Virus record (IMG/VR): IMGVR_UViG_3300025154_000049
Coordinates: 94,518-158,517 of that record
Reading direction: 5' to 3' (one strand)
Length of the DNA: 64,000 nucleotides
Origin: a virus
In this document: one piece after another, positions 7,964-56,307 of the stretch
Numbering within the stretch: the first letter of the stretch is position 1
Layout of the letters: every line of letters begins with the position of its first letter
Translations under genes and position numbers: made by a program
Notes under the pieces: model-generated
Told to the model about the DNA's origin: nothing
Databases searched by the model: none
What the model saw: only the letters and a program-made list of their open reading frames with translations

Positions 7964-8266
7964 TTACTCCGTTAGTTCTATCAAAGACCTTATTACTTCT
8001 ATAGATATATCTCTATATTCTTCTGTATTTTTAGGGTTAAAACAATCAGCTACCAAATTTAATACTTTATTAAATTTTGAATAGGATTTCTCTCGTGTGT
8101 TGTCTATCATGTCTACAGGAATAAATAGTTTAGCAGAAGATTTAAAAGTAAATTCTATGCCAATCCACTCACTTTCTGAGTTTTCACTAAATTTACTTAT
8201 CTTGATAACATATCCAGCTACTTCTTTAGTATCTATTATTCCGTTCCCTATTATATTTATTATCAC
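7964..8266 (-). CDS. C-terminal xELxx-tag protein
   Basis: ends SLIELTE. Confidence 0.7.
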   Translation of the reverse strand: MIINIIGNGIIDTKEVAGYVIKISKFSENSESEWIGIEFTFKSSAKLFIPVDMIDNTREKSYSKFNKVLNLVADCFNPKNTEEYRDISIEVIRSLIELTE

Positions 8267-8712
8267 AGCACAAGTTCTCTCATCATAGTGTATGTTGTTT
8301 TGACTCCTTTACATCTTAAGTATATTTCAAACTTATCATTTATATTAGTTGTAGAGTCATACCTATATTTTATAAATCCTACTCCAACACCATAAATAAC
8401 ACTAGAAGTGTGTTGAAGGAATAAAGGTACGTTATTATTTTTCAATACTACTAACACTTTAGAAGCAGGTTTATTAGCTTGTAGTGTCTTCATCAATTCT
8501 CTGGTATCTTTACCATACTCTTTTATCTTTTCTGCATTAGGTTTTTTCCAATCCTCTTTAAATAGAACTACATCAAAAGAATTATAAGCCTCAGAGGATA
8601 TGTCTGAATTTTCCACGTATGGATTTATATAGGTAACTACATTACCTTCCCAGATAGATTCTTCGACTTTTAAAAATTCTATTAAAGAATATAATTCTAA
8701 TTCTATGTTCAT
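8263..8712 (-). CDS. C-terminal MxEL-tag protein
   Basis: ends MMRELVL. Confidence 0.75.
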   Translation of the reverse strand: MNIELELYSLIEFLKVEESIWEGNVVTYINPYVENSDISSEAYNSFDVVLFKEDWKKPNAEKIKEYGKDTRELMKTLQANKPASKVLVVLKNNNVPLFLQHTSSVIYGVGVGFIKYRYDSTTNINDKFEIYLRCKGVKTTYTMMRELVL

Positions 8713-8975
8713 CCAATAAGTTCCCTCATAGCTACAAACTTAATCATGAACTCGCCATAACTTTTTATATCTTTGAATATTTTTAATTTACAACCATCTT
8801 TTATATTACTGTTTATAAAGTTTTCTGCATCCCAATTATTCATAGTATTCACTAATTCACAGTTATGGTCATAAGCTACATAACATAATGATGTTACGTT
8901 CTTAATAACGTAATAAGTTTCTTCGTCATATACCAAGTAGTAATAACTAGGGTTTATATCTTTTATTTTACGCAT
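8709..8975 (-). CDS. C-terminal MxEL-tag protein
   Basis: ends AMRELIG; start moved to MRKIK behind AGGAG. Confidence 0.75.
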   Translation of the reverse strand: MRKIKDINPSYYYLVYDEETYYVIKNVTSLCYVAYDHNCELVNTMNNWDAENFINSNIKDGCKLKIFKDIKSYGEFMIKFVAMRELIG

Positions 8976-9033
8976 TGATTCTCCTAATAAAAATAGAGTT
9001 GTTGCCAACTCTGGGGAAAGGGAAAGGGATTTA

Positions 9034-9234
9034 TTATCTTATTAATTCTTTCATCACTCTCTCTCTATTCACACAATCTTGATTATGGTATCTTTTGCTA
9101 CTGTACCACATTCCTGTTTTTTCTTTGATATTAATACAACTGCTTCCTTTATCTATCCATTTTTTGCACCCATCACACACAAATGATTTTCTACTTTTCT
9201 TTACGTAGATTACCTGTCTTCCGTCAGTATCCAT
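9034..9234 (-). CDS. Zn-ribbon-like MxEL-tag protein
   Basis: CDGC...HNQDC; ends VMKELIR. Confidence 0.7.
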   Translation of the reverse strand: MDTDGRQVIYVKKSRKSFVCDGCKKWIDKGSSCINIKEKTGMWYSSKRYHNQDCVNRERVMKELIR

Positions 9235-9422
9235 TAAAGTTTCTCTCCACATAATATACAATGATGATTCATTTGACAAGTGTAACAAACATTAGTAAAG
9301 CTAGTTTTAAATTTTTTCTTACATACTTTACATTTTATCTCTATAGCTTTATCTCTTTTTATCTCTTTGTCTTTACACTTAGAACACTTCATGATGTCTG
9401 CTTTCTTTTTTGTTATGTTATT

Positions 9423-9475
9423 AATATACCACAGCTTATTAATTTTTACAAGGGGTTTGTTAATAAATTGTTACA
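9423..9475 (-). promoter_or_regulatory. sigma70 promoter plus operator
   Basis: TTGTAA-17-TATATT; TGTAAC-N6-TTAACA 6 bp upstream of -35. Confidence 0.7.
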
Positions 9476-9988
9476 TTATTCAACAAGTTCTATCATAGTT
9501 TTCCTAACACGGTTTAATTTTTCCATAGTGCTCTTAGCTCTTCTTTTTACTTTTGCCCTGTCGTACCCAGTAAAAGTTATAAATGTTTTATCTTTAGAAG
9601 CAATACTCTTATGTAATTCTATCTCTTCTATCTTTCTGATGTCTCTGGTTGGTACAAGTTTAGGGAAGTCTTCGTCTTCTTCTAGTTTTATCCCGTCTTT
9701 GTCTTCACTTGCTTTTATAGTACAAGGAACTCCTACAGAATAATCAGAGTATTCATCAGGTATAAAATATTCTACTCTAGCTATAGAAGGAATTTCCTCC
9801 TCTTCAAATTTAGCATTGTATTCATCTCTGAGTCTATTAGCTTCGTAGCCAGAGGTGAATACTCCAACAACCTCTATACTGCTGGCAGAGTAAGAACCGT
9901 AGTTAGATTTATAGCTACCCATAGTAATCCACATGTTACGAACATCTTCATGGATTAGATATAAAGTATAAATAAGATTATCTTTCAT
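9476..9988 (-). CDS. C-terminal MxEL-tag protein
   Basis: ends TMIELVE. Confidence 0.75.
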   Translation of the reverse strand: MKDNLIYTLYLIHEDVRNMWITMGSYKSNYGSYSASSIEVVGVFTSGYEANRLRDEYNAKFEEEEIPSIARVEYFIPDEYSDYSVGVPCTIKASEDKDGIKLEEDEDFPKLVPTRDIRKIEEIELHKSIASKDKTFITFTGYDRAKVKRRAKSTMEKLNRVRKTMIELVE

Positions 9989-10479
9989 TATTCTACCAGC
10001 TCCTGCATTGTTTCATAGTGTGGAAAAGCATCTAAAAATATTTCAGAATGCCATATAATCATACTTACTAATTGTTCGTATTCTATTTTATTCATGAATT
10101 CTTCTTTAGCTTCTTCTAACATCTCTGCCTTATATAAAGCTCTTGACATCACGGGGGTTAAATTCGCTTCTGTTTCAAAAACCTTATCGGGGAGTAACTT
10201 AAGATTCTTAAAAACATCTTGAGCTATTAAATTAGCCGTAGCTTTAGTAGCCTCTCTACAACTGGCTACTTTCATTTGGGGATACCCTCCAACAAATCTT
10301 GTTCTTACCTTAACTTCCATACCCCATATATTACGCATTGCCATATCAATACCCATAACGTACTCAGAAGATTTTGTAGTTTTTACTATAGGCTTGGGAA
10401 TATTATTTTTACCGTACAAGTTATTATTGTGAACGTGCCCTAATTTATTTAAGTGCATTCCAAAAGGCTTTTTACCCAT
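9988..10479 (-). CDS. C-terminal MxEL-tag protein
   Basis: ends TMQELVE. Confidence 0.75.
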   Translation of the reverse strand: MGKKPFGMHLNKLGHVHNNNLYGKNNIPKPIVKTTKSSEYVMGIDMAMRNIWGMEVKVRTRFVGGYPQMKVASCREATKATANLIAQDVFKNLKLLPDKVFETEANLTPVMSRALYKAEMLEEAKEEFMNKIEYEQLVSMIIWHSEIFLDAFPHYETMQELVE

Positions 10480-16220: not shown

Positions 16221-16541
16221 CTAATTTACTAATTCGTGCATGGTGCCAAATATCTCTACATCTTCTTTAGAGTATACATCTACTTCATAGACACTTCCCG
16301 TATTTCTACTAAGCCAAACTTTTATCCTACTTTTCCAACAGGGTCTAACTCTATCGTTTACTAAATTAATAACACTGCGGAAATAGTTGTATATATCATT
16401 TATGTTTTCAAATTCCCATACCCAATAGTTATTATTAGGCATAGTTTTAATAACTAAATAAGAATTCCCCAAAAAATTCCTAGATATTCTTATGTAATAT
16501 TTATTTTCCGTAGCCTCATCTATGGAAGTTATTCTTTTCAT
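16221..16541 (-). CDS. MxEL-tag protein
   Basis: ends TMHELVN. Confidence 0.75.
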   Translation of the reverse strand: MKRITSIDEATENKYYIRISRNFLGNSYLVIKTMPNNNYWVWEFENINDIYNYFRSVINLVNDRVRPCWKSRIKVWLSRNTGSVYEVDVYSKEDVEIFGTMHELVN

Positions 16542-16879
16542 TTTATTAATTCATCCATCATCTTTATACTGATTATCTCATCTATATTATCCAATTCAAA
16601 TATTTTAATGTCATAGCTTCTTAATCTAAATCCATACTCAAAATATCCTATCTTACCCTTAAATACGTCTATCAGGAGACCTTCTGTTAAAATAGTATTA
16701 TCCTGTCTGGGATTTCCGTAACGATATTCTCTCCATTTACTTTTCTTTCCTCCGCAGGTGTAAAAGAATCTATACTCAGGAAACTTGGAGAGAGAAGAAT
16801 CCCAATGATGCACTCCAGTTTTCTTATAACAGTATACTTTAAGGGGATTTAATTTTTCAGGAGGGTCTATAAGTCTCAT
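16538..16879 (-). CDS. MxEL-tag protein
   Basis: ends MMDELIK. Confidence 0.75.
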   Translation of the reverse strand: MRLIDPPEKLNPLKVYCYKKTGVHHWDSSLSKFPEYRFFYTCGGKKSKWREYRYGNPRQDNTILTEGLLIDVFKGKIGYFEYGFRLRSYDIKIFELDNIDEIISIKMMDELIK

Positions 16880-17088
16880 TATTGGATTAACTCCTGCATA
16901 TACTTTCTAGCTTCCCTAAATTTATAGGATAATCTAAACCTATGGCACTTCTGGGCATTTCTTTCATATCTGGCATTATGGCAAGGCTCGGATTTACTTT
17001 CATTATGCTCACATATTCTACACGTCCTATAGATACATCTACTTGCATTACACTTAGCTTTTCCTCCGTTACAGTTTACACAACTCAT
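16879..17088 (-). CDS. Cys-rich MxEL-tag protein
   Basis: ends YMQELIQ. Confidence 0.7.
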   Translation of the reverse strand: MSCVNCNGGKAKCNASRCIYRTCRICEHNESKSEPCHNARYERNAQKCHRFRLSYKFREARKYMQELIQ

Positions 17089-17348
17089 CCTATAAGTTCC
17101 TTTATCATTAGATGATTTTTATATTCAGTATAGGTCATACATTCGTAAGATATTAATCCCCCATCTTCAGAGTAGACATCAATTACCTCTTGTATACTTG
17201 TGTATCGGGTATCGTGAAACTTACCTTGGTAATTGTACAAAACATACAAATATTTACTCCTACTCTTCTGTTTATAAATAGCAACATCGTCAGCTTCATC
17301 ACTGCTGAACCAAGGAGCACGTACTCTTAATTTGTGATATACCGTCAT
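17085..17348 (-). CDS. MxEL-tag protein
   Basis: ends MIKELIG. Confidence 0.75.
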   Translation of the reverse strand: MTVYHKLRVRAPWFSSDEADDVAIYKQKSRSKYLYVLYNYQGKFHDTRYTSIQEVIDVYSEDGGLISYECMTYTEYKNHLMIKELIG

Positions 17349-17659
17349 GATGTTAATTCTTCCATAGTACCCATCGTCAATACATAGTCGTCCAATTCTT
17401 CTTCACTATCAAATTCAAATAGCTTTACCCTAGAATCGTATACCTGTTCCTCTACGAACCATCTTTCTAATTCAGAAATTCCAGAGAACTCAGTTCTTCT
17501 AAACTTATCTGGTTTCGTTTGTTGTTTATAGAATACTTTACCTTTCTTACTTATCTTATAAGTAGCCCAAGTATTACCGCTAAGTATTCTACTATCGGGG
17601 CAATATATTAAAGTATAGGAATTTAATTTTAGAAATCCTCTTATCTTTATTTCTTTCAT
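17345..17659 (-). CDS. MxEL-tag protein
   Basis: ends TMEELTS. Confidence 0.75.
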   Translation of the reverse strand: MKEIKIRGFLKLNSYTLIYCPDSRILSGNTWATYKISKKGKVFYKQQTKPDKFRRTEFSGISELERWFVEEQVYDSRVKLFEFDSEEELDDYVLTMGTMEELTS

Positions 17660-17877
17660 GATATGAGTTCTCTCATAGTTTTATAGTTATCTACCGCTTC
17701 CCAGAATTCCTCTTTGGTTATTTTAGTCCAATTCCTTTTAGCCAACTCACTGGAACCTGTTGTAGTTAGAGTATAATATTTTTTAGTAAATATCTCATTG
17801 ATATGATAGCTATGTGTTAGCCCCCAGTCATTTATTAAATGGACATATCCATAAGGGTCTCTGTAATACTCCGACAT
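17656..17877 (-). CDS. MxEL-tag protein
   Basis: ends TMRELIS. Confidence 0.75.
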   Translation of the reverse strand: MSEYYRDPYGYVHLINDWGLTHSYHINEIFTKKYYTLTTTGSSELAKRNWTKITKEEFWEAVDNYKTMRELIS

Positions 17878-17889
17878 TATTTCCTCTTA

Positions 17890-17968
17890 ATTGTAACCTA
17901 TAGGTTACATTTTACTCTACTGATTGTAACCTATAGGTTACATTTTACTTTATTATCTATAGGTTATA
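17890..17968. repeat. tandem palindromic operator-like repeats
   Basis: TGTAACCTATAGGTTACA at 17892-17909 and 17925-17942 within a 27-nt direct repeat (period 33), plus a degenerate third copy. Confidence 0.9.
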
Positions 17969-18004
17969 TTTATTATTTAAAAACATAATAGATAGGTTAT
18001 AATT

Positions 18005-18361
18005 TTAAGATACCAACTCCTTCATCATAAAGTAACTATTGTAGTGAGACTCGTTTTCAAACTCTAATAAGTCCATGTGAGGTTTTTCATAATAAACATG
18101 AGCGTACCCAAAATGCTTAGTTAGATAAGAAACCAGATGATTTACTTTTAAGCAATGCCATCTACCCTTATCGTCTTTAAGATAGATACCGCTCTTATCT
18201 CTTTTTATAGCCAATTCTTTAAAGTCGTCATTTTTAAATAATGTGGTAGGGAAAGCTATAGCATAGAATTTACCTTCCTTGAATAGCTCACTAGGAATTT
18301 TATAATTCTTAGTTATGTTAGATAGTTTAATCTTTTTGACTTTATTAGTAATTTTACTCAT
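18005..18361 (-). CDS. MxEL-tag protein
   Basis: ends MMKELVS; start moved to the ATGA overlap. Confidence 0.75.
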   Translation of the reverse strand: MSKITNKVKKIKLSNITKNYKIPSELFKEGKFYAIAFPTTLFKNDDFKELAIKRDKSGIYLKDDKGRWHCLKVNHLVSYLTKHFGYAHVYYEKPHMDLLEFENESHYNSYFMMKELVS

Positions 18362-18594
18362 TCCGTTAGTTCCCGTATATGTTTCCACTTAGCCATACTT
18401 TCGTCATCTATCGTAAGACAATCATAGGGACAATGTTCTACTGCCTTTATTATCTTTAGTTCATTACCTTCTATGTTCTGCTCCTTTATCTCTATCAAGA
18501 AGAAAGAACGAGGGCTATCTATTAGAAAAACTTCAGGACAATAATACTCACAATGCTTACATAGTTGGCATTCATCTCCTATGTATATTATCAT
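18358..18594 (-). CDS. ferredoxin carrying the C-terminal tag
   Basis: CxxCxxCxxxCPEVF...AVEHCPYDCL; ends HIRELTE. Confidence 0.8.
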   Translation of the reverse strand: MIIYIGDECQLCKHCEYYCPEVFLIDSPRSFFLIEIKEQNIEGNELKIIKAVEHCPYDCLTIDDESMAKWKHIRELTE

Positions 18595-18941: not shown

Positions 18942-18945
18942 GTTT

Positions 18946-19323: not shown

Positions 19324-19393
19324 TTTATTCTCCTTTTTAATTACCTACCTACATAATATCATAAATGTTATTATTTATCAAGTGTCTTCGAGA

Positions 19394-45558: not shown

Positions 45559-45965
45559 GTTACAAGCTCCCTCATATATTTAAAAGTCTTGAAGTCTTCT
45601 TGGTTTAAATCAGTAAAGGCATAAGTAACAGAACCACCGTTGTAATAATCTATACCGAATACATGTTTCACTGGTAAATCATCATCGTAGTATACAGTCT
45701 GCCAAATCTGGTCTCTATTATTTGTCTGACCATAGTTTAATCTTATAGCTTCTAAGTTTGGCTTGGGGTTAGTTATATGCACTATAACATCCCCTTGTAT
45801 ATAATTTACCATTCCGTATCCTAAAGCACCATTGACAGGAACCAACTGATTGAATCCGTCATCCATAAGATAATTTTTAGTCAGTACTCCTTCATGGCTG
45901 AAAATTACACTCAGGGTATTTTCTCTTATGTTTCCTAGGGTCTCTATGCAGAAATCACTTATCAT
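45555..45965 (-). CDS. tag protein
   Basis: ends YMRELVT. Confidence 0.75.
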   Translation of the reverse strand: MISDFCIETLGNIRENTLSVIFSHEGVLTKNYLMDDGFNQLVPVNGALGYGMVNYIQGDVIVHITNPKPNLEAIRLNYGQTNNRDQIWQTVYYDDDLPVKHVFGIDYYNGGSVTYAFTDLNQEDFKTFKYMRELVT

Positions 45966-46483
45966 GCTACTAACTCCTGCATCATTAGAAACTTATCAAC
46001 ATTGTCTACTATCTCAATTACTTTAAGTAAGTCTCTGGCTTTTATACAGGATTCGTCCCCTTCTACAGATAGTATCATCCTACCATTTTTCATAACCTTC
46101 TTAACTTCTAGTTCAGTTTTGTTATCGAAGTTACCGTCAGTGTATATACGCAAGGACACTATAAAGATATCTCCGTTCCAGATATTATCACACATCCAGA
46201 TACTGGGACGAAAGCTAGTGTTAGCCTCAATAAGATTCTCTATCTCGTGAATATGTTTATATCTCTTATTAGTATTTGCTTTCCCAAAATCTTTATAGGT
46301 ATCTAAAAGCTTACTGTGTAGTTGTCTTAACTTCTTGTCATACCAAGGATGTAAGTTTCCTTTCCTATCTGTTACGTAGGTAGGTAACTCTTCTTCTTTC
46401 TCTTCAGTTACACTTTCTCCTATAAATAGATTCTTAATATATTCTATTAAAGAAAAGTGTTCATTACAACAAGGACATTTCAA
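45962..46483 (-). CDS. tag protein
   Basis: ends MMQELVA. Confidence 0.75.
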   Translation of the reverse strand: MKCPCCNEHFSLIEYIKNLFIGESVTEEKEEELPTYVTDRKGNLHPWYDKKLRQLHSKLLDTYKDFGKANTNKRYKHIHEIENLIEANTSFRPSIWMCDNIWNGDIFIVSLRIYTDGNFDNKTELEVKKVMKNGRMILSVEGDESCIKARDLLKVIEIVDNVDKFLMMQELVA

Positions 46484-46785
46484 CTTACAAGTTCCCTCAT
46501 CATTACATATTTATCTATCTCTGCTAAGTATTGTTCTTTAGTTCTGTACTCTTTTATTATATCGTTATAGAATTTCTCATGATTAGTTGTATAAGAAGTT
46601 TGTAACCTATTACCAACTACAGTAAGAATCTTTCCTCTCTGTAAGTCATGAGAGTTACATACGAAAGAATAAGCGAAGGCTCCTTGGATAAATCCTTCAG
46701 TTTCCCAATACATAAAGGAACACTCGGGGGAATTATAATCAGTGTTAAGACACTTTGATATTTTAAAGTACCTTGACTTATTCAT
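46480..46785 (-). CDS. tag protein
   Basis: ends MMRELVS. Confidence 0.75.
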   Translation of the reverse strand: MNKSRYFKISKCLNTDYNSPECSFMYWETEGFIQGAFAYSFVCNSHDLQRGKILTVVGNRLQTSYTTNHEKFYNDIIKEYRTKEQYLAEIDKYVMMRELVS

Positions 46786-47042
46786 AGCGTTAATTCTTTC
46801 ATAGTTAATATTTTATCTATTTCTTCTGGGTCAAATATTATAGAGAGTACTTGGAAACCTCCATCATTTTTATCTCCAGAACATAGAACTCTTTTTAAAG
46901 CTTCTGTTAAATCCTCTTCATAACATTCATAGTCAAATCCATCATTCAGATAAGTACATCTTAATTGATTACCTTTCTGATAGTAGTAGTGTTCATTAAT
47001 CTTTCCACTCCTTCTTGTCTTTACTATGATTCTTTCTATCAT
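46782..47042 (-). CDS. tag protein
   Basis: ends TMKELTL. Confidence 0.75.
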   Translation of the reverse strand: MIERIIVKTRRSGKINEHYYYQKGNQLRCTYLNDGFDYECYEEDLTEALKRVLCSGDKNDGGFQVLSIIFDPEEIDKILTMKELTL

Positions 47043-47341
47043 GATACTAGCTCTTTCATCATAACATACTTTTCTATTTCTTGCAAGTACTCTTCTTCAG
47101 AATTATATTCTTCTAAGTAACTATGAACTGTAGTAGTTGTTCCGTAGGCTCCTCGTTCCACTAACTGTACTGCATCTATTGTTTCACATCTTTTAGCTAC
47201 TGTATGTGTACATTTACAATGAACTTGTCTTTCAAAATCATATACATAAAGTATATCCCCTATTATATAAATCATAGATATACCACCAGAACAATGCTTA
47301 TCTCTCCAAGACATTAGAGGTAACTTGTAATACTGAATCAT
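47039..47341 (-). CDS. tag protein
   Basis: ends MMKELVS. Confidence 0.75.
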   Translation of the reverse strand: MIQYYKLPLMSWRDKHCSGGISMIYIIGDILYVYDFERQVHCKCTHTVAKRCETIDAVQLVERGAYGTTTTVHSYLEEYNSEEEYLQEIEKYVMMKELVS

Positions 47342-47682
47342 TCTACAAGCTCCTTTAGCGTTCTATACTTAGTAAGACATCTCTGTAATCCTTTCTTGGT
47401 TCTGAATTCATATATGTTCCACTGTCGTACTCCTTCACTATAGGATAGACTGTCGGCTATGTCATCTACCCAATCCCACAACCAATCATGGCTTGTGTAA
47501 TCACATCCTTCTAGTATTAAGTCTTCCCCCAGATTATACCTTATATAATCTCCATATCCATCCTCATCTCGTTCTTGTACTTCGTAAGCAAAGAACCTAT
47601 CATCCACTTCTGGTATTAAGGGAACAGCAAGATAGAATCTATCGGGTCTTATGTTACATACAAGTTTCTCTATCTGTTTCAT
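47338..47682 (-). CDS. tag protein
   Basis: ends TLKELVE. Confidence 0.75.
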   Translation of the reverse strand: MKQIEKLVCNIRPDRFYLAVPLIPEVDDRFFAYEVQERDEDGYGDYIRYNLGEDLILEGCDYTSHDWLWDWVDDIADSLSYSEGVRQWNIYEFRTKKGLQRCLTKYRTLKELVE

Positions 47683-47945
47683 GATACGAGTTCCTGCATC
47701 ATTAAGTAATTATCAACCTCACAGTTTTCTATCTCGTAGAAAATATCTGGAAACAACATAACATCTTTATCTATAACAAGGTCATGGAATATTAACAGGT
47801 TCTTGTGTACCTCTGCTGTAGAAGATACTCCCCATCTTATAAACTTTAATACTGTATATTTAGGGTTACTGAGGCTAGTACCTAAAGGATAATATAGATA
47901 GTGCTTCCCTGTTATACACTTATAGGTTCTCTTTAGTTGATTCAT
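47679..47945 (-). CDS. tag protein
   Basis: ends MMQELVS. Confidence 0.75.
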   Translation of the reverse strand: MNQLKRTYKCITGKHYLYYPLGTSLSNPKYTVLKFIRWGVSSTAEVHKNLLIFHDLVIDKDVMLFPDIFYEIENCEVDNYLMMQELVS

Positions 47946-48238
47946 TCTACTAATTCCTCTATCATTAGTTCATTTTGAAACCGACCCCAAGTTATTTCTT
48001 CTATAGGATTACCCTTGCTTTTAATCCAGTTGAAGAATTCTAACTGAGTATTGTGTCTTGTTGTATACCATGATTTACTAACCTTGTCCCAAACTTCTAG
48101 TATGTACTTGTCTGGTTCTTTATAAGTAAGAATGTTATGTTTTCTATAATAAACATAAACAGTCTTATCTTCTGATTTTATAGACGGGTCGGTATAATTC
48201 CAGTTACGGAATTCTACTTTGAAATAAATATCTTTCAT
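47942..48238 (-). CDS. tag protein
   Basis: ends MIEELVE. Confidence 0.75.
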   Translation of the reverse strand: MKDIYFKVEFRNWNYTDPSIKSEDKTVYVYYRKHNILTYKEPDKYILEVWDKVSKSWYTTRHNTQLEFFNWIKSKGNPIEEITWGRFQNELMIEELVE

Positions 48239-48531
48239 TCAATAAGCTCCACCAAGGATGCTCTAAGACTTTCCAAATCAGATAGGCTATTGGACTCTGC
48301 TATTATAGTATGACCTCTGCTTTTTATGAACTCTGGAAAGAGTAAAATATAGTTCTTCTGTGCTATAGTCCAGTTGGCTATATCGTTATATCTGAAGTAG
48401 AAGTAAACGTCGTCATTAAATTCATTATTAACATCAGGAACTACTTTGTAGATAAAGTACAAAGGCTTAGTAGAGTGAAGTACACTCTTAACTAAACAAT
48501 AGAAAGATGGTCTTAAAGGTTTTGCTCTCAT
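48235..48531 (-). CDS. tag protein
   Basis: ends SLVELIE. Confidence 0.75.
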   Translation of the reverse strand: MRAKPLRPSFYCLVKSVLHSTKPLYFIYKVVPDVNNEFNDDVYFYFRYNDIANWTIAQKNYILLFPEFIKSRGHTIIAESNSLSDLESLRASLVELIE

Positions 48532-48764
48532 GATATTAATTCCTTCATTGCAAGGGAAGCTTCAAATTCTTCTGTAGGAATTTGTTCTATCTTATATTGG
48601 AAAGCCTCAGCTACTCTTATCATTTCAGCCTCATCTATGAAAGAAACAGTAGACCAACAATCTTTATAGTTACCATCATAATAGCTAATAAGATTATTGT
48701 CTCTTACTCTATAGATGTCATCCGTATTGTTATCTGTATTTGTAACTCTAAAATATTTAGTCAT
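48528..48764 (-). CDS. tag protein
   Basis: ends AMKELIS. Confidence 0.75.
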   Translation of the reverse strand: MTKYFRVTNTDNNTDDIYRVRDNNLISYYDGNYKDCWSTVSFIDEAEMIRVAEAFQYKIEQIPTEEFEASLAMKELIS

Positions 48765-49000
48765 AAAATAAGTTCTTCCATTATTAAGGTTGCTTCAAAT
48801 TCATCTGAGGTAAGTTCGGTTAAGATATAACTTTCTGGATATCTACTAGCACAGTCTATACAAGAGTCTGCGTTAAGTATGGAGGTTCTATCCCACCAGC
48901 CTCTTTTCTTATTATATATCTGTGCTTTATCATTGTCAACACATTTATAATAATCTGTTACATTTGTATACTTCTTATAAACTTTAAAGTATCTTATCAC
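48761..49000 (-). CDS. tag protein
   Basis: ends IMEELIL. Confidence 0.75.
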   Translation of the reverse strand: MIRYFKVYKKYTNVTDYYKCVDNDKAQIYNKKRGWWDRTSILNADSCIDCASRYPESYILTELTSDEFEATLIMEELIL

Positions 49001-49314
49001 TTAGTTAATTCCTCCATGAATAAGAACTTATCTAATTCCTCTTCGGAGTCTAATTCCCAGAGAGACATATCGTGAGACAGATAATTCCATGTAACAAACC
49101 ACTTATGTAAATCCATCCGAAGAGTAGAATCTGTAGCTTCAGAAGTATGCCATATCTTTCTATTCCTAGTACTGGTAAGCTTCTTATAATTGAAGTTACC
49201 TATAGGAATAAACACATGTAAGTTCTCAGTAATAAAAGTTTCTCCAAGATGTACTACGTATATCTTATCATGTTCTATTTTAAAAGTATGGTGTATGTTG
49301 CCTAAGTTTCTCAT
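48997..49314 (-). CDS. tag protein
   Basis: ends FMEELTK. Confidence 0.75.
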   Translation of the reverse strand: MRNLGNIHHTFKIEHDKIYVVHLGETFITENLHVFIPIGNFNYKKLTSTRNRKIWHTSEATDSTLRMDLHKWFVTWNYLSHDMSLWELDSEEELDKFLFMEELTK

Positions 49315-49565
49315 GCCACTAACTCACTCATCATTCTTACAGACCTTCTGTAGTCGTTGACAGTTTCAAAGTCTACTTCTTTATAGGAATCTCCTATAAA
49401 TTGAATAAGAGATTCTTCACTCTTGAAATGTAAATCATTAACTGCATTGTTTGTTTTCCACATGTGGTTTTCAAAATAGTTATATTCAGCAAACCACGTA
49501 TTAATTTGTTTGTAGCAGTAAGTAGTTATGTAAGATTTATTATCTGGATTAATATAATATCTCAA
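49311..49565 (-). CDS. tag protein
   Basis: ends MMSELVA. Confidence 0.75.
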   Translation of the reverse strand: MRYYINPDNKSYITTYCYKQINTWFAEYNYFENHMWKTNNAVNDLHFKSEESLIQFIGDSYKEVDFETVNDYRRSVRMMSELVA

Positions 49566-49918
49566 GACACTAACTCCTCTATCATTCTCTCAGAGAGATA
49601 TTCTTTTTCGTCTAAGAGATATATTTTTCTGAACATATATTCATAATAAGACCTGTTAGATGTTCTTAGGTCAGCATTTATTAGATTACATATATCAGCA
49701 TGGAAGTTGATATTGTATAGTAGTTCTAGGAACTGGTCTATCTCTTTCGCACTAGAAGTTCTAAAGTCTATGTATACTTTCTTCTGTCTGTTGAAAGTAC
49801 TTGTTATGACCCAGTATCTTTTTATACTCCAAAAGAACCATCTTATTATAAAATGATTATGCTTTTTAAATACTGAAAAGATATTAAAGATACTTGACCT
49901 GTTACCTACTTCTATCAT
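49562..49918 (-). CDS. tag protein
   Basis: ends MIEELVS. Confidence 0.75.
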   Translation of the reverse strand: MIEVGNRSSIFNIFSVFKKHNHFIIRWFFWSIKRYWVITSTFNRQKKVYIDFRTSSAKEIDQFLELLYNINFHADICNLINADLRTSNRSYYEYMFRKIYLLDEKEYLSERMIEELVS

Positions 49919-50208
49919 GACACTAATTCTTTCATTACTGAGTATTTACTTATTTCTTTTAGATACTCTTCCTCTGTTTCATATATTTCCAGTATTGGGA
50001 AATTAAAGGTTCTATTAGTTCTCGACAACCAAACATGTAGACAGTCTCCTTTTATGTAGGAACAAGTCTGTCTTATCTTAGAACATCTATGCTCTCCTTT
50101 TACAAAGTTATAACCACGGTCTTGGTCTCCGTCCAGAGTTATAAAAGAAACTCCCGCAGAAGTAAAATGTTTATTAGGGAGTCCTTGCATTTTTAAATAC
50201 ATCTTCAT
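49915..50208 (-). CDS. tag protein
   Basis: ends VMKELVS. Confidence 0.75.
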   Translation of the reverse strand: MKMYLKMQGLPNKHFTSAGVSFITLDGDQDRGYNFVKGEHRCSKIRQTCSYIKGDCLHVWLSRTNRTFNFPILEIYETEEEYLKEISKYSVMKELVS

Positions 50209-50450
50209 CCGACAAGTTCCTGCATAAATAAAAAGTTATCAAGTTCTTCTTTAGTTACTTCTTTTATACCTAAGAATCTTTTATCATGTTGAGCACCTCC
50301 CAGATACCAATCCGTCGTTACCCATTCTTTGGATTTAACCATGAGTTCTTTCCATCTCCAGTATCTCTTATGAACTCCTATTTTAAAGTATCTATATCTA
50401 GGGGTACTTCTATACCCATCAAACAATGTTAGATAATAACGGTACTTCAT
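50205..50450 (-). CDS. tag protein
   Basis: ends FMQELVG; start moved to the ATGA overlap. Confidence 0.75.
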   Translation of the reverse strand: MKYRYYLTLFDGYRSTPRYRYFKIGVHKRYWRWKELMVKSKEWVTTDWYLGGAQHDKRFLGIKEVTKEELDNFLFMQELVG

Positions 50451-50638
50451 TCGACAAGTTCCTGCATAGTTATATATCTTAAGGCTTTCTCTCCTGAAAT
50501 TATATGACCAGCCACTCCGCCTACGGACAAGTTCCACTCTCCATTATACCAGTACTCTAATCTTTTTTCAATATAATCGTACCGATATATTAAGGGATTG
50601 TAAAATTCTTCTGTAGATATATGATACTGATATCTCAT
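50447..50638 (-). CDS. tag protein
   Basis: ends TMQELVE; start moved. Confidence 0.75.
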   Translation of the reverse strand: MRYQYHISTEEFYNPLIYRYDYIEKRLEYWYNGEWNLSVGGVAGHIISGEKALRYITMQELVE

Positions 50639-50880
50639 GCTATTAATTCCTTCATACAAAGATAAGCATCTATTTCTTCTGGGTCAGTAATTAAAGTACA
50701 ACTTCTACCATAATCTTTAAAATAAGATAGGTCTTCCAATTTAGCACTAGGATTATAGTAGGAGAAGATAAGCTTCTTACCTCCTATATAATAGTATTCT
50801 ATCTTATTATCCCAACCATAAAAGAATAAAGTAGATTTGGTATCTGTTGAATTAATAACTAAAAGTCTACTTAGAGTCAT
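50635..50880 (-). CDS. tag protein
   Basis: ends CMKELIA. Confidence 0.75.
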   Translation of the reverse strand: MTLSRLLVINSTDTKSTLFFYGWDNKIEYYYIGGKKLIFSYYNPSAKLEDLSYFKDYGRSCTLITDPEEIDAYLCMKELIA

Positions 50881-51203
50881 ACTGTTAGTTCCTTCATGAA
50901 TTCTAAGGTGCCATAGTCTTCTGCTTCTGCCAGTACTTCGTAACCGTACTCAAGAAAATATTGTTCTGGTTTAAGTCCTAACCTTCTAGGTAACGTAAGC
51001 CAACCATAATCTTTCCTATGAATGTCATAGTAATAATTATAAGTGCCGTCTCCGTTTAGTCCAAGAGTTAATCTACATATAGATATATCTAAGTTATTTT
51101 TAATATACTTATAACTGTCCTTGACAAGATAGAATCTCTTACCAGATTCTTCATAAGCTTTTAGCTTTCCTTGTTCATCTTCTGCTATAAAAACTTTCTT
51201 CAT
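50877..51203 (-). CDS. tag protein
   Basis: ends FMKELTV. Confidence 0.75.
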   Translation of the reverse strand: MKKVFIAEDEQGKLKAYEESGKRFYLVKDSYKYIKNNLDISICRLTLGLNGDGTYNYYYDIHRKDYGWLTLPRRLGLKPEQYFLEYGYEVLAEAEDYGTLEFMKELTV

Positions 51204-51213
51204 ATCAACCTTC

Positions 51214-51462
51214 TTAAGATATTAATTCATTTAAGTATACTAACTTCTGATATTCTTCCATAGACTCTAGCTTATAAATATCATACGTGTCAAACAGAAC
51301 GCTTACTTTTTCTGGAGTGTCGGATAAGTGTGCAAATTGCCAAACAGTGTACTTATCTAAAAACCTATGCTGTTCTTTCCTTTTATGAAACACGTAGAAG
51401 ATAGGACTGTCCGTACAAGTTACAGCTTCAGATAATGATTCCATGTTATCTAATTGTATCAT
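51214..51462 (-). CDS. tag protein
   Basis: ends YLNELIS; start moved. Confidence 0.75.
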   Translation of the reverse strand: MIQLDNMESLSEAVTCTDSPIFYVFHKRKEQHRFLDKYTVWQFAHLSDTPEKVSVLFDTYDIYKLESMEEYQKLVYLNELIS

Positions 51463-51707
51463 CCGATGAGTTCCTTCATACACTTAAGCTTTGTCTTCTC
51501 TTCCTCAGACTCTATCTCGTAGATATCATATATGTCAAAGAATCCAGAGTAGCCTTGAAGGAATGTACCCATGCCATCTGTCAGTCTGTAAGAAGTCCAT
51601 TTCATTATTCTCTTCTTATTAGTTATGCTTATCCAATTGTCTTTCTTCCTGACAGTGTAGTAGTGTTTCTTATATTTGATATCAGCCTTATTAAATATTT
51701 GTATCAT
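51459..51707 (-). CDS. tag protein
   Basis: ends CMKELIG. Confidence 0.75.
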   Translation of the reverse strand: MIQIFNKADIKYKKHYYTVRKKDNWISITNKKRIMKWTSYRLTDGMGTFLQGYSGFFDIYDIYEIESEEEKTKLKCMKELIG

Positions 51708-52033
51708 GTTGTAAGTTCCTTTACATACTTGAGAGTATTAAGAAATCTTTTAACTGCTCTAAGGGATTTAAACTCGTAGATAGAATTCCAATTCTCTATC
51801 GTAAGATGATATCTGTCGTAAATCTGACCAGACCAGTTCCTGAAAGTATCGAAGCTTTCCTTACAATAGTATGTATAGATGTTTAAATCTAAAGTAATTT
51901 CATTACAAATAAAAGTACGTTCTCCAACCTTATGATACAACTCTCCAGCAGAAGAATATCCCTCTGGGTTATTTCTTAGTACCAGATATAACCTGTCCTC
52001 TTTAATATTAATCTTAGGAATAAACTCTTTCAC
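51704..52033 (-). CDS. tag protein
   Basis: ends YVKELTT. Confidence 0.75.
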   Translation of the reverse strand: MKEFIPKINIKEDRLYLVLRNNPEGYSSAGELYHKVGERTFICNEITLDLNIYTYYCKESFDTFRNWSGQIYDRYHLTIENWNSIYEFKSLRAVKRFLNTLKYVKELTT

Positions 52034-52338
52034 GATATTAACTCCAGCATACTGTCTAATGAATCTCTCACTTCATCAACTTCTTTCGTACTATCTATTT
52101 CGTATATAGAATAGTCTCCATGTCCATAGTTCTTTCCATGATTGAATAAATGTAACAGTTGACTATCGTTGAACTTATGACGATTGTTATTCACTGGTGT
52201 GTTAGCATGCCATACGAGATAATGTAAGAATGTTCTTATTACATTAGTAGGCTTATATCCTTTATAAGAACGATAAGTATACACATATACTTTATCTCTG
52301 TTCAGTTCTTTTATAGGTAATTCTAATAATCTTATCAT
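52030..52338 (-). CDS. tag protein
   Basis: ends SMLELIS; start moved. Confidence 0.75.
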   Translation of the reverse strand: MIRLLELPIKELNRDKVYVYTYRSYKGYKPTNVIRTFLHYLVWHANTPVNNNRHKFNDSQLLHLFNHGKNYGHGDYSIYEIDSTKEVDEVRDSLDSMLELIS

Positions 52339-52571
52339 GATACTAATTCTTTCATCATTATAATAGTATTTGCTTCCTCCTCTGTTATCTCTACCATAGT
52401 ATCCCTCCATATATTAATGCTACTAAGGCTCTCCACATTAGGGAAATGGGTTTCTCTCCACCTTACCTCCCCCTCTATTTTCTCACAAACTTCTACATTT
52501 CTGATTCCTCCCGAGTTCCATCTAAAGAATCCAAAAGGGAAAGTTATATTTGATTTAAAATATCTTACCAT
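52335..52571 (-). CDS. tag protein
   Basis: ends MMKELVS. Confidence 0.75.
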   Translation of the reverse strand: MVRYFKSNITFPFGFFRWNSGGIRNVEVCEKIEGEVRWRETHFPNVESLSSINIWRDTMVEITEEEANTIIMMKELVS

Positions 52572-52861
52572 GATACTAATTCTACCATAAACTCTTTTGT
52601 TTGTCTAGCCACAGTTTCTTTTTCTATTACATCAGCTATAGCACTCGTGATAGCTTTAGGAAGACTATCTCTATGACTCTGTTCCATTCTGGGACTGTAG
52701 TATAATCTATCCCAACTACGTACTTCATTGAACAAGTACTCCATAGTGTAAGTACCTTTTCTTCTATCGACAAGTCTTAAGTTGTGTACTCTCAGTTCGT
52801 TACCTTTATTAAATAGATAATACCTACTCGTCTCGGCTATAAGATTGTATTCGTTTGACAT
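52565..52861 (-). CDS. tag protein
   Basis: ends FMVELVSW. Confidence 0.75.
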   Translation of the reverse strand: MSNEYNLIAETSRYYLFNKGNELRVHNLRLVDRRKGTYTMEYLFNEVRSWDRLYYSPRMEQSHRDSLPKAITSAIADVIEKETVARQTKEFMVELVSW

Positions 52862-52870: not shown

Positions 52871-53506
52871 CTAGCTAACTTTAGATAAGTATCTTATATG
52901 GAACTTCTGGATGTTATATCCTCCAGCATAGATAGCTTGAGTTACCAGAGTTCTTTCTAATCCAAAGGGTTTCTTAATCTTAAATGTTCCTACCAAGTTT
53001 CCTTTACTTAATGCTATGTCGACAGTTTGTACTTCATTTATTTCTACACCGTCGAAATGTTTAAGAGCGGACTGAAGTAACTTGTATCTTGAATTAAGTA
53101 TTGATTCGGTAACAGTCATGTCAATAAATCTATCAAGTTGTTTTCTGTTATGTGCTTCTATTAATTCTTTGTTAGGCTCCCCATAGCAACCATGAGTTCT
53201 TCTTCCGTCATGCTTCTTTATACCTAGTTGTTGTAAAGTATACCAACATGATTTATAGAACTCTTTATTGAAATGACTTATCTTTAATTGTAGCAATTGA
53301 AAATCATGCGGGGAATAATACTCAGAAGTATTTAAGAACTCTCTGTACTTTAATTCCCAGTAAGCTTTTATGTCTTGAGCCATCTCATCTTCTTTAACTT
53401 TAAAAGAAGAAGTCATCTTCTCGATAAGCTCTTCGTTCAATTGTTTCTTAGTCTTATCTATTTTATTAGAAAGCTTTTCATTGTTTCTTCTTATATCGTC
53501 TAACAT
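52871..53506 (-). CDS. hypothetical protein leading the 30-gene tag operon
   Basis: First gene after the 53539 promoter; C-terminal IYAGGYNIQKFHIRYL; no tag. Confidence 0.7.
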   Translation of the reverse strand: MLDDIRRNNEKLSNKIDKTKKQLNEELIEKMTSSFKVKEDEMAQDIKAYWELKYREFLNTSEYYSPHDFQLLQLKISHFNKEFYKSCWYTLQQLGIKKHDGRRTHGCYGEPNKELIEAHNRKQLDRFIDMTVTESILNSRYKLLQSALKHFDGVEINEVQTVDIALSKGNLVGTFKIKKPFGLERTLVTQAIYAGGYNIQKFHIRYLSKVS

Positions 53507-53591: not shown

Positions 53592-53831
53592 TTAGTTTAC
53601 AAGTTCTTGTATAGTAAGTATTCTAGTTATCTCATCTTCATCTGTTATTATTTTGAGACCCACAGGAAATTCATCTATTATATCTTCTAGGCTTAAACCC
53701 ATAGTATGTATAGGACATAAGTATTCTTTCTTGTCATTTAAATATCTATAATGAATATTACTCTCACCATAAAAGTATAAACGAGAAAGAGCAGGGTTAT
53801 AAGGAATATCTACTATAAGTCTTTCAAGCAT
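53592..53831 (-). CDS. tag protein
   Basis: ends TIQELVN. Confidence 0.75.
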   Translation of the reverse strand: MLERLIVDIPYNPALSRLYFYGESNIHYRYLNDKKEYLCPIHTMGLSLEDIIDEFPVGLKIITDEDEITRILTIQELVN

Positions 53832-54091
53832 TAGTTTACTAACTCCTTCAAGACAAGAGCACCGTTGAATTCGTCCTCAGTTAGTTCTTCTACTATGTTT
53901 AATTTATCATATAAGTCCTGTATGTAATCACAGTAGGCTCCAGTATACTTATCGTAATGTTGAAATAAAACATATCCTTTGGGAACAGCTAACTGATGAG
54001 GACAGAATTTAACATACTCGAAAAGATTAGACGGGGTTATAAACTTAAAGTATCTGGGTTTAGTATATTCAAGATACCAATCTAAACTCAT
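53831..54091 (-). CDS. tag protein
   Basis: ends VLKELVN. Confidence 0.75.
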   Translation of the reverse strand: MSLDWYLEYTKPRYFKFITPSNLFEYVKFCPHQLAVPKGYVLFQHYDKYTGAYCDYIQDLYDKLNIVEELTEDEFNGALVLKELVN

Positions 54092-54318
54092 CCTTTTATT
54101 CTTTCCGCCAGTTCTATTATCTCTTTATTAAATTCGTTCTTACATTCTCCAGAACAGATATGGAGTTTGGCTCTGCTTATATGGAAAGTTATCCAGTCGT
54201 TATCTTTAATAGTATCTATTATATCTTGAGGGCATGGCTCGTGAGGAGTCTCTATGTGTTTACCACACTGGTCGCAATAGATTCTATACAGATATTCGTC
54301 ATCGTCAAAAACTATCAT
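54088..54318 (-). CDS. Zn-finger protein
   Basis: CDQCG..HICSGEC. Confidence 0.65.
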   Translation of the reverse strand: MIVFDDDEYLYRIYCDQCGKHIETPHEPCPQDIIDTIKDNDWITFHISRAKLHICSGECKNEFNKEIIELAERIKG

Positions 54319-54463
54319 AGTTATATTTGTCCCATCTTCTTCAGGTTCTCGTCAGACTGTCTCTTGTCTTTAAGTCCCGTTCCTATAAACACTTGTGCTC
54401 CATAGGTTTCATCGTAGCCTATGAATAGCAATTCTCTTTTCTTTAAGTCTTCTTGTTTTGACA

Positions 54464-54733
54464 TTAGTTTATTAACTCCTTCATGCACTTGTATATCTCT
54501 GCTTCTTCTTCAGTAACCTTCTGGAATTCCTTTGGATTATTTGTACAACCGTGGTCTAACAGTTCTCTTAATTCCACTTCTGACACATCACTCCACATAG
54601 TAACAGAGAATCCGTTGAAGTAGAATTGTTTCTTGGTAGCTACATCTCTTATCGCCCATGCTCCTCTACGACAATCGTGGAACAACTCGTCATAATAAAC
54701 TTCTACTATACTATCGTTAATCTTATAGTACAT
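54464..54733 (-). CDS. tag protein
   Basis: ends CMKELIN. Confidence 0.75.
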   Translation of the reverse strand: MYYKINDSIVEVYYDELFHDCRRGAWAIRDVATKKQFYFNGFSVTMWSDVSEVELRELLDHGCTNNPKEFQKVTEEEAEIYKCMKELIN

Positions 54734-55260
54734 TAGTTTACCAACTCCTGTAGCATTATGATTGAATCTATCTTGTCTTCTGAGTTCAACATCTCTTTTA
54801 CTTCCTCAGTTATATCTTCATCGTTAAGGAACTTCTCCAATGAATTATAGTAATAGAATCTTAAGTTGTCGTATAGATTACTACGTATCCTAGAAATTAT
54901 AAAAGCATCATTAGAGTTGGGGTAACTATAGTAATCAGAATCATCACCAGATACAATATTAAATCCTCCTGATTTAGAAAAGGTTATCTTCCACACTTTA
55001 CCTCCTTTCCAATAAGAACCTTCTTTGTGTATTACAGAAAAAGTTTCATTTGTATTATAAAGTTCTTTAATCTTATTATAGCATATTATTACTAAAGCAT
55101 CAAGTAGTTTGTAACTAAATCTTATCTTATTAGCTTCTTCTTTTATTAACTCAGGATTATCAATCGCATCTTTAAGCATACCTCGTAGAGAACTATGGCT
55201 TCTACAGTTCTCTTCTATTAAAAGTATATCTGCTATTACTTCTGAGTTAGTGTAATTCAT
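54733..55260 (-). CDS. tag protein
   Basis: ends MLQELVN. Confidence 0.75.
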   Translation of the reverse strand: MNYTNSEVIADILLIEENCRSHSSLRGMLKDAIDNPELIKEEANKIRFSYKLLDALVIICYNKIKELYNTNETFSVIHKEGSYWKGGKVWKITFSKSGGFNIVSGDDSDYYSYPNSNDAFIISRIRSNLYDNLRFYYYNSLEKFLNDEDITEEVKEMLNSEDKIDSIIMLQELVN

Positions 55261-55726
55261 TAACAGTTCCTAGTTTCCATATTAAATATTTTCTATATTG
55301 ATTTATAGTTTCTTGTAGAGGTAAGACCGTATTAGTTTCAACAGTACATTTATATTCTTTACTGTATCTGAAAGGAGCTTTGTCTGGAACTTTTAAAGTA
55401 GAGTCTCCCAGCTTACTTAGTTCTCCTAAGATATACTGGTACTTTAATTTAGTAGGGTCTTTTAGTTTAACAGTATCTTTGCAGTGGGATAGTAATCTTA
55501 GTCCGTACTTATTAATCCACTGTGGATTTTCTTTTATGAACTTTTGAAACTCCTTACCTTGAGGAATCTTTTTGTCCAGTAAACTATCTAATTCTTTACC
55601 ACCTAAGACTGAACTTATCATCTGACAGAGTTCTTTTAACATGGTATGACAATAAGCAGGTTTCATATTATTTATAAGTATCTCCGCAGATTCTACGGGG
55701 AACTCAGATAAAATATATAATTGCAT
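55247..55726 (-). CDS. pyrimidine-dimer DNA glycosylase (DenV)-like
   Basis: MQLYILSEFPVESA..KELCQMIS..QYRKY pattern. Confidence 0.5.
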   Translation of the reverse strand: MQLYILSEFPVESAEILINNMKPAYCHTMLKELCQMISSVLGGKELDSLLDKKIPQGKEFQKFIKENPQWINKYGLRLLSHCKDTVKLKDPTKLKYQYILGELSKLGDSTLKVPDKAPFRYSKEYKCTVETNTVLPLQETINQYRKYLIWKLGTVNELH

Positions 55727-55902
55727 ATTTACTTTCCTTAACGATACGTTCTTATAGACTTTGGTACAGATAATTTATCCCTTAATGATTCAATAACTAA
55801 AAATTCTTGTTTAGTGTACTCTCTTCGAGATACCGTTCTATTTAAAAGAATTTCAATAAATAGTTTTTCTTCTGGATTTAAAACCATATTCATCATCTCT
55901 CC

Positions 55903-56307
55903 TTAGTTTACAAGTTCTTCCATAACTTTAGATGCGTTCATTATACTATCGACTTCTGCTCTTCTACGAGAACAATCAAAACATCCTACGTAAGTTATTC
56001 TACAGTAGACTTTAACTATAGCTGTAACAACTCCGTCTATGTTTTCGTATGTTAGTATATTGCTTGTACTGGCTTGGTCGTATTCTATATTAACACAAGC
56101 ATAACCAGCACTGAAATCTTTAACGTGGTTTCTTAACTCTTCATTATATAAACTGGAATGATAGTAAACATTGGGTACTACTAAATCTCTGAAGGTAATT
56201 TCATTATCTGTCTTAGCAATACATTGTACTGAAGTTCCTCTTGATGGAATGCGTTCTCTCTTTTTTCTTGGGGTCATACTTTTACCAGAACATTTAAAAC
56301 CTATCAT
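55903..56307 (-). CDS. tag protein
   Basis: ends VMEELVN. Confidence 0.75.
   Translation of the reverse strand: MIGFKCSGKSMTPRKKRERIPSRGTSVQCIAKTDNEITFRDLVVPNVYYHSSLYNEELRNHVKDFSAGYACVNIEYDQASTSNILTYENIDGVVTAIVKVYCRITYVGCFDCSRRRAEVDSIMNASKVMEELVN

Follow-up and report, generated by a model that had tools for sequence, protein, structure and literature searches.

Constant terminal elements shared by otherwise different proteins are known from several systems. Poxvirus ankyrin proteins carry a C-terminal PRANC/F-box-like domain and, together with the cellular F-box and SOCS-box families, they provide the comparison for docking on a hub. In phages of the T4 family, gp43, gp33 and gp55 bind the sliding clamp through SLDFLF-like tails, and gp2.5 and gp4 of T7 have acidic C-terminal tails. 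Terminal addressing signals are represented by the Dot/Icm E-block signals of Legionella effectors, the encapsulation peptides of bacterial microcompartments and the T4 capsid-targeting sequence. Here we describe a C-terminal tail shared by a large set of small proteins encoded in a 64,000-nucleotide stretch (the window) at positions 94,518 to 158,517 of the IMG/VR virus record IMGVR_UViG_3300025154_000049. Genes and proteins with this ending, [MILV]xEL[VIT]x directly followed by the stop, are referred to as tagged.

In the window, the motif ends 68 of the 217 minus-strand open reading frames (ORFs) of at least 40 codons, and 77 of them when a looser form with 0-3 trailing residues is accepted, compared with 1 of 322 open frames on the plus strand. 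If Ala or Ser is also allowed at the position before the last residue, 72 window copies are obtained. The motif lies exactly one residue ahead of the stop in 68 of 85 occurrences. Counting by arrays within 7964-56307 gave 76 clear copies and three with longer extensions, so the figure of about 83 put forward in the first-pass annotation of the window was essentially right, although slightly high. By our own estimate from amino-acid frequencies, ~0.1 matches per 313 proteins would be expected by chance. In the whole record (158,517 bp, hereafter G000; the window covers its final 64 kb), the tag is present on 99 of 313 called genes, none of them inside the structural module. Tagged genes therefore make up about one third of the genes of this uncultured phage from groundwater, and their products are mostly 75-120 amino acids long.

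The C-terminal alignment, numbered from the V/I/T residue, reveals a hydrophobic strand at -22 to -18, Ser/Thr/Asp at -15, Glu/Asp at -13 and -12, hydrophobic residues at -11 and -8, and then Met-x-Glu-Leu-(Val/Ile/Thr). The conserved unit comprises ~20 residues: a beta strand (IYEF-like), an acidic cap (S/T-E-E-E) and an amphipathic helix followed by a single C-terminal residue. Further upstream, the information content drops to sampling noise. The acidic stretch ahead of the tag, reported in the first-pass annotation, was recovered, with E/D at -13 in 62% and at -12 in 48%. The tag described there is better regarded as this ~20-residue helix module, which is likely part of the fold, than as a free element of six residues.

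Two relatives, located via the major head protein, were used for comparison. The genome G002 (190,151 bp, with direct terminal repeats) is estimated to be complete and its head protein is 99% identical to that of G000, while G001 (170,200 bp) is estimated to be 90% complete and has a head protein 73% identical to that of G000. G000 and G001 have roughly 60 core proteins in common. Codon usage within the tag is variable. Among the 72 window copies, all six Leu codons (TTA 30, CTT 22, CTA 8, TTG 6, CTC 3, CTG 3) and both Glu codons (GAA 42, GAG 30) are present, as in the synonymous variation noted at first pass. At the Met position, codons other than ATG all specify Ile, Leu or Val (ATA, TTG, TTA, CTA, GTA, CTT, CTC), whereas ACG, AAG and AGG, which nucleotide drift would be expected to produce, never occur in these copies. 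In tagged ortholog pairs of G000 and G002 (n = 68), the proportion of synonymous differences (pS) at the Glu codon is 0.75 and the Leu codon shows 30 synonymous differences; both codons approach synonymous saturation between orthologs. The peptide, in turn, is retained: 81 of 83 reciprocal-best tagged pairs keep the tag in both genomes, and the other two differ only by V -> L.

Most tagged genes are translationally coupled to the next gene. A start codon lies within a few bases of the tag stop in 73 of 90 tagged genes in G000, 68 of 83 in G002 and 42 of 64 in G001. The stop is TGA in 52 of the 72 window copies, and in 44 of them the codon before Glu ends in G, which places RGGAR eight bases ahead of the next ATG. 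This Shine-Dalgarno (SD) sequence within the tag is conditional and fades on genes without a coupled downstream gene. A G-ending codon before Glu was found in 50 of 73 coupled versus 5 of 17 uncoupled tagged genes in G000 (Fisher p 0.005), in 43 of 68 versus 5 of 15 in G002, and in 39 of 42 versus 8 of 22 in G001 (p 3e-6), with a background of 13-16% G at third positions. The tail peptide and its exact spacing persist on the uncoupled genes (17 in G000, 15 in G002 and 22 in G001), in accordance with the retention claimed at first pass. The four copies cited there as lacking an SD (9034, 9476, 16221 and 53592) indeed have neither an SD nor a coupled downstream start. The use of six Leu codons, the synonymous differences at Glu and Leu, and the maintenance of the peptide where the SD fades indicate selection on amino acids. 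Comparison of amino-acid and nucleotide conservation thus shows that SD and ATGA alone do not account for the tag, and the earlier proposal of selection on the peptide is upheld by codon variation, by ortholog differences and by uncoupled copies. We conclude that the peptide itself is under selection and that its codons in addition bear a translational-coupling signal, made up of the SD in the x-Glu codons and the ATGA stop/start overlap.

The DNA pattern of the tag in G000 has no copy in G001, where ~64 small genes have a tail that is related but not the same, (D/E)(I/V)xK(Y/F)LM(T/V/I/M)xELLK. Further contigs (L034, L035, L036 and L037) were recovered via family members, and five lineage dialects were distinguished. 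Dialect A, [M]MxEL[VIT]x, is present in G000, G002 and L037; dialect B, LM[TVIM]xELLK, in G001; dialect C, MAxEL[LSM]K, in L034; dialect D, LMMxEL[TI]x, in L035; and dialect E, [LM][ATV]xKL[RMS][KRNQ], in L036, where Lys takes the place of Glu in 5/5 tails. The last residue is mixed in lineage A (S 28%, N 12%, G 11%, K 9%, E 7%) and is K/R in 97% of lineage B tails.

We have also addressed the relation between bodies and tails across lineages. Orthologous groups were defined on the bodies alone, with the last 14 residues removed, at 38-53% identity. In three such groups, the tail of each member is in the dialect of its own contig. The MKEFIPKINI group (window 51704-52033) ends with YVKELTT in A, MAKELLK in C, and LVDKISK or LADKLSK in E; the MRYA group with LAMQELTS in A and LMAQELSK in C; and the third group with LFMQELVG in A and KMAEELMK in C. 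The paralogs therefore predate the split of the lineages, and their tails have changed in step. Since codons are heterogeneous within each genome, gene conversion (homogenisation) is excluded as the cause. The simplest explanation of this concerted change is a shared selective agent that acts on the peptide. A constant element for one shared partner, as proposed in the first-pass annotation, predicts such behaviour, and the change in five lineages fits this prediction.

Two groups of positions behave differently in the tail helix. Those at -12, -9 and -8 are occupied by varying hydrophobic residues (Ile/Tyr/Phe/Leu) and look alike in every dialect, whereas Met (-7 or -6), Glu/Lys (-4) and Leu (-3) hardly vary inside one genome but change from lineage to lineage. 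On a helical wheel the two groups fall on different faces, and this arrangement of sequence positions suggests a packing face and a displayed face. The reading we favour, although we hold it tentatively and at slightly less than an even chance, is that a diversified family of small early binders carries the tail as a constant handle for interaction with one co-evolving partner, and that the coupling signal is superimposed on it. The family would be a very large and very fast-diverging set of small early proteins, ~100 per genome, most of them with a single fold, in which four beta strands are followed by a helix, a fifth strand and the last helix, and a few with unrelated bodies but the same ending. 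One face of the helix (-12, -9, -8; I/Y/F/L) would pack on the protein's own variable body, and the other (Met -7 or -6, Glu -4, Leu -3) would be displayed as the common handle. A single shared partner, either phage- or host-encoded, would read this handle; an unfoldase or protease, a scaffold, or the tails of other family members could serve as such. Which target is bound, in host takeover or counter-defence, would depend on the variable body of each protein. As to the sigma70-type promoters cited at first pass, a promoter scan returned 127 sigma-70-like sites versus 98 +/- 10 in shuffled sequences, a difference without discriminating power in this AT-rich DNA. A more far-reaching version, possible but distinctly doubtful, would be a phage-wide address system, in which a third of the proteome is a library of diversified small binders whose constant C-terminal helix is read by one hub. 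It is just as doubtful, although conceivable, that hub (an unfoldase, protease, scaffold or transport route) and handle co-evolve in such a system, so that each lineage acquires a private dialect, up to the Glu -> Lys charge reversal.

The bodies of tagged proteins are highly divergent in sequence, as had been noted at first pass. With the last 10 residues removed, 92 of 99 are singletons by BLASTP. In a jackhmmer search on bodies of the three genomes (n = 272), the largest cluster has 21 members and 66 remain singletons. The mean pairwise Smith-Waterman z is 0.22 versus 0.08-0.17 in controls, and hhalign aligns only the last 19 columns of the two subfamilies named A1 and A3. A body-only profile matched 41-46 tagged and 8-10 untagged proteins at E<1, with weak E-values, and by eye many members show an N-terminal strand, an aromatic hairpin, a Trp and a short helix. 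Gene turnover is high. While 94 of 106 tagged genes have a match in G002 (median identity 87%), only 5 of 106 have a BLAST match in G001, compared with 60 of 207 untagged genes. The ratio of nonsynonymous to synonymous differences (pN/pS) is 0.27 in the bodies versus 0.14 in untagged genes, indicating that tagged genes are real and constrained by purifying selection, although faster-evolving.

AlphaFold2 models were built for both subfamilies. The A1 model (model 1; 23 sequences, with window 27476-27703 as the first sequence of the alignment) has a predicted local distance difference test score (pLDDT) of 70 and elements E3-8, E17-23, E29-32, E38-40, H46-52, E57-59 and H62-75. The A3 model (model 2; window 48531-48764, 9 sequences) has pLDDT 82, a predicted template modelling (TM) score of 0.68, and elements E3-9, E14-20, E26-30, E36-40, H45-54, E58-62 and H64-77. 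The predicted topology of these two subfamilies is identical, b4-a-b-a, with the tail as the last helix, and most members therefore probably belong to one hyper-diverged family. A two-copy homodimer prediction for A1, run without controls, gave a score of 0.01, a value that speaks neither for nor against self-association. Clearly different bodies are only 3 of 99, two membrane proteins and one Cys-rich zinc ribbon of 69 amino acids. The library of different recognition domains envisaged at first pass thus holds for sequences, which are unrelated, but probably not for folds, as both modelled subfamilies share one topology and only those three bodies are clearly other. The opposite case considered there, paralog expansion of a single fold, is accordingly seen in part.

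No common family was detected when 98 tagged proteins were compared with Pfam and PHROGs; matches were confined to five in Pfam and four in PHROGs, each of them isolated and weak. Foldseek with model 1 found nothing in the PDB at E <= 0.001, and VIA-align of model 2 against 48,161 chains gave a best Z of 6.1, under the usual background of 7-8. Searches of BFVD gave weak matches only (E ~0.01, TM 0.5-0.65), to uncharacterised small phage proteins, and shape and feature searches of the ESM Atlas gave only TM ~0.5 or scores <0.8. The A1 profile had only 60 matches among 1.84 billion representative proteins, all of 49-108 amino acids except for two long repetitive proteins, and the small ones, with few exceptions, align through to the last one or two residues.

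Several points weigh against the favoured reading of a handle for one partner. No partner that could be the hub of the first-pass annotation was identified. The exposure of Met, Glu and Leu is inferred, and the two AlphaFold2 models give secondary structure only. The last helix of an 80-residue protein must join the hydrophobic core, and its conservation may be largely structural; given the topology shared by the two modelled subfamilies, the whole set may amount to an ordinary paralog family of very large size. The invariance of Glu and Leu is partly built into the search pattern, and a hidden Markov model of tail positions -26 to -8, constructed for defining membership without Glu-Leu, was too weak, with only 6 matches. 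Cross-lineage orthology consists of three groups, and lineages C and E are represented by short contigs (1.7 and 7.7 kb). Finally, in L037, otherwise a dialect-A relative, the ortholog of window 51704-52033 (3974-4306, 79% identical) has a decayed tail, YVKDLQHD, a rare instance of tag loss, and the motif is therefore not required by all members.

The main rival to the handle, which we consider unlikely but not negligible, dispenses with a partner: the tail would simply be the conserved last helix of one fast-diverging paralog family, uniform by common descent. Its fixed distance from the stop would, with the same limited probability, reflect the room required for an SD and for the overlapping ATG of the following gene. 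The common predicted topology of two sequence-unrelated subfamilies, the scarcity of different bodies (3/99), the enrichment of tagged proteins by the body-only profile and the coupling of 73/90 tagged genes in G000 all agree with it. On the other hand, orthologous bodies carry the tails of their own genome, including Glu -> Lys in all five L036 tails, and this match to the paralogs of the same genome argues against independent structural helices, which would not change in step. In addition, Met, Glu and Leu vary far less than the core-like hydrophobic positions, tail and exact spacing are present on the 17, 15 and 22 uncoupled genes of the three genomes, and the same tail ends two membrane proteins and the 69-residue Cys-rich protein, which is too small for the fold.

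Tails might also bind each other, so that members form hetero-oligomers or a larger body via the common helix and the family acts as its own hub. This would account for genome-wide concerted change without an extra gene, and the proteins are co-expressed from long coupled arrays; still, we regard it as improbable, and the all-basic end of lineage E (KLRK-like) could hardly self-pair unless with the acidic cap. Of comparably small probability is a C-terminal degron or timer, itself a special case of the shared-partner reading, in which a protease or unfoldase adaptor would recognise the helix by its free carboxylate and clear early proteins at a set time. This is in line with the constant distance of the motif to the C-terminus, one residue in 68 of 85 occurrences, with the early-gene context and with the phage's own permuted transfer-messenger RNA (tmRNA), whose tag also ends in hydrophobic L-V-A. 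However, ssrA-like degrons of the ClpXP type have non-polar last three residues (LAA/LVA-like) and a conserved terminal residue. The tails do not follow this scheme, their last residue being mixed in lineage A and K/R in 97% of B. The invariant Glu (Lys in lineage E) is unlike the ssrA-type C-degrons known to us, and the scan of phage proteins revealed no protease or adaptor gene that could serve the timer.

A role in cis, with the nascent peptide or an RNA signal promoting termination-reinitiation at the ATGA overlap, appears very improbable: the motif does occupy the last six codons beside the stop/start overlap and holds the SD in coupled genes, but the same spacing is found on genes without a downstream partner, where the SD has decayed, the several Leu codons imply different tRNAs, and dialects differ in amino acids while the coupling architecture is the same. 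Two further ideas were ruled out, a recombination joint resembling the PeSL-like cassette borders of T4, as the tail nucleotide sequence is too heterogeneous, and a membrane-targeting helix of the MinD/FtsA type, as the helix is acidic in lineages A-D.

Tagged genes of the window are arranged in arrays, all on the minus strand, which were delimited using the ORF list, the tails and nucleotide junctions. Six small tagged genes make up the array at 7964..10479 (ORF list, tails and junctions), including the uncoupled copies ending at 9034 and 9476. The array at 16221..20135 (tails, nucleotide junctions) consists of 12 tagged genes, among them the one with a Cys-rich, zinc-ribbon-like body (16879-17088), and one untagged membrane-like ORF (18946-19323). 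At 22725..23470 (ORF list, tails), two tagged genes are accompanied by one with a 5-residue extension after the tag (MKELVGDINA). Nine tagged genes, including the A1 gene at 27473-27703, are located at 25211..29147, just upstream of a tRNA/tmRNA cluster. In this cluster, a block of 14 tRNA genes (29274-30395, minus strand) adjoins the phage-encoded permuted, two-piece tmRNA (30425-30627, minus strand; Rfam tmRNA_permuted, 93.8 bits), the tag peptide of which ends in ...KMALVA according to ARAGORN.

The segment 36429..40539 (tails, junctions) holds twelve tagged genes and one with an internal motif followed by a 14-residue extension (36429-36689). The longest array, 44151..52861 (ORF list, junctions), has 30 consecutive tagged genes, mostly overlapping by ATGA. 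It includes a tagged body with two transmembrane segments (44151-44447), the A3 gene at 48528-48764 and the gene 51704-52033, whose orthologous group is known in three tail dialects. It is headed by an untagged gene of 211 amino acids (52871..53506, minus strand), which is conserved in the relative L037 and has no family match. Five more tagged genes are interspersed with untagged ones at 53592..56307 (ORF list, junctions), and the uncoupled copy at 53592-53831 is followed by TAATGTAAC. This sequence, as TAATGTAAC(AA), recurs directly after array-terminal genes in lineages A and B: at the ends of the window genes at 9476 and 53592, in G002, in G001 (ORFs ending at 90600, 98387 and 103319) and at L037 2206. 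It reads as a stop followed by an ATG-TAA start-stop, and it could be a conserved terminal signal.

The source genome has a GC content of 31.6%, nearly all of its genes are on the minus strand, and its completeness is estimated at 83%. Matches to PHROGs (tail sheath, major head protein, prohead protease and baseplate wedge) identify a contractile-tailed phage; further matches are two RNA ligases, RtcB and a MoxR/CobS-like ATPase. G000 (158.5 kb) is a fragment of a ~190-kb phage with direct terminal repeats, represented by G002. The region ~53-88 kb of G001 has no counterpart in G000, and that part of the genome is thus absent from the record. Identity of the tail sheath to any of 50,697 phage records is at most ~53%. 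Neither a megablast search with 8 kb of the tagged region nor a tblastn search with one tagged member gave a match in those records. Sequencing runs that contain the sequence are DNA runs from 11 studies, of groundwater, soil and sediment metagenomes, together with one wastewater run (a small share); no RNA run was among those listed.

Several untagged genes were recorded as well. A 213-aa protein at 5907-6548 (minus strand) has an N-terminal prokaryotic methylation motif of type IV pilin-like character (PF07963, E 5.6e-6). Among the early arrays, 21724-22023 (minus strand) encodes a 99-aa protein with a C-terminus that appears GroES-like by eye and with 44% identity in G001. An untagged paralog family of six BLASTP-linked members contains larger proteins, up to 668 aa (window 13243-15249, 3938-5452, 32069-33430, 31599-32078 and 821-1633; G000 23259-23690), one of which has a weak PcfJ-like Pfam match (E 0.0025). 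Outside the window, three paralogs of 736-746 aa (L003:13050-15290, L003:15308-17518 and L004:6988-9201, corresponding to G000 53050-69201) strongly match phrog_27227, of unknown function, with E down to 6e-124.

Early genes of large phages are mostly small ORFans without a handle for study, while ~100 per genome share one peptide-selected element here. With the tail peptide as bait, the partner could be recovered and a third of the proteome made accessible in one go, and the dialect changes, including the charge reversal, offer a built-in specificity control in the form of dialect A versus dialect E peptides. If a hub exists, the system would be a counterpart of F-box/PRANC logic in a bacterial virus and a source of small evolvable binders. 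If it does not, few paralog expansions known from phages are as large, and the set remains a clear example of codons that hold protein and coupling information at the same time.

Coupled gene arrays, with ATGA overlaps and the SD inside the upstream gene, are matched here by the 73/90 coupled genes of G000 and by RGGAR in the x-Glu codons. Coupling accounts for the G-ending codon and the TGA stop, but Met, Leu, Val/Ile/Thr, the uncoupled copies and the lineage dialects go beyond what it explains. With terminal addressing signals, the tail has in common a short, often helical, Glu-rich terminal peptide present on many different proteins and serving one machine. Those signals, however, are loose in sequence or, in T4, N-terminal, no machine of the E-block or encapsulation kind was recognised in this phage, and the carriers here look like one fold.

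The clamp-binding tails of T4 and the acidic tails of T7 are likewise short hydrophobic or acidic motifs at the extreme C-terminus of several phage proteins, directed to one partner (putative in our case). The register of the T4 tails is similar, with hydrophobic residues at -6, -3 and -2 and a small last residue, but they have an aromatic residue at -4, where Glu is found here. Carriers in T4 and T7 are replication and transcription factors, as opposed to ~100 small proteins of unknown function. Among G002 and G001 proteins of at least 200 aa, the tail was not found on DNA polymerase or late transcription factors; only a 255/257-aa protein of unknown function carries it, and RNA ligase paralogs and a 228-aa protein match loosely. 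A search for the gp45 clamp (PF02916) gave no match in G000, G001 or G002, and equally none in all 14 control genomes.

With the PRANC, F-box and SOCS-box proteins, the tagged set has in common a large, fast-evolving multigene family with variable target-binding parts and a constant C-terminal element docking on a hub, putative here. It differs in that a ~20-residue helix stands in place of a box of 40-50 residues and in that the bacterial host has no ubiquitin system; Pfam and PDB searches found no sequence or fold similarity to these families. Full-text literature searches did not retrieve a description of such a phage tail system and so, together with the Pfam, PHROG and PDB results, bear out the first-pass annotation, to which no similar described phage system was known. 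By analogy, the tail system may be regarded as a viral multigene family with a constant docking element. Without membership by sequence or fold in any of the known groups, it resembles in its logic the PRANC/F-box families, the clamp-binding tails of T4 and the C-terminal addressing signals.

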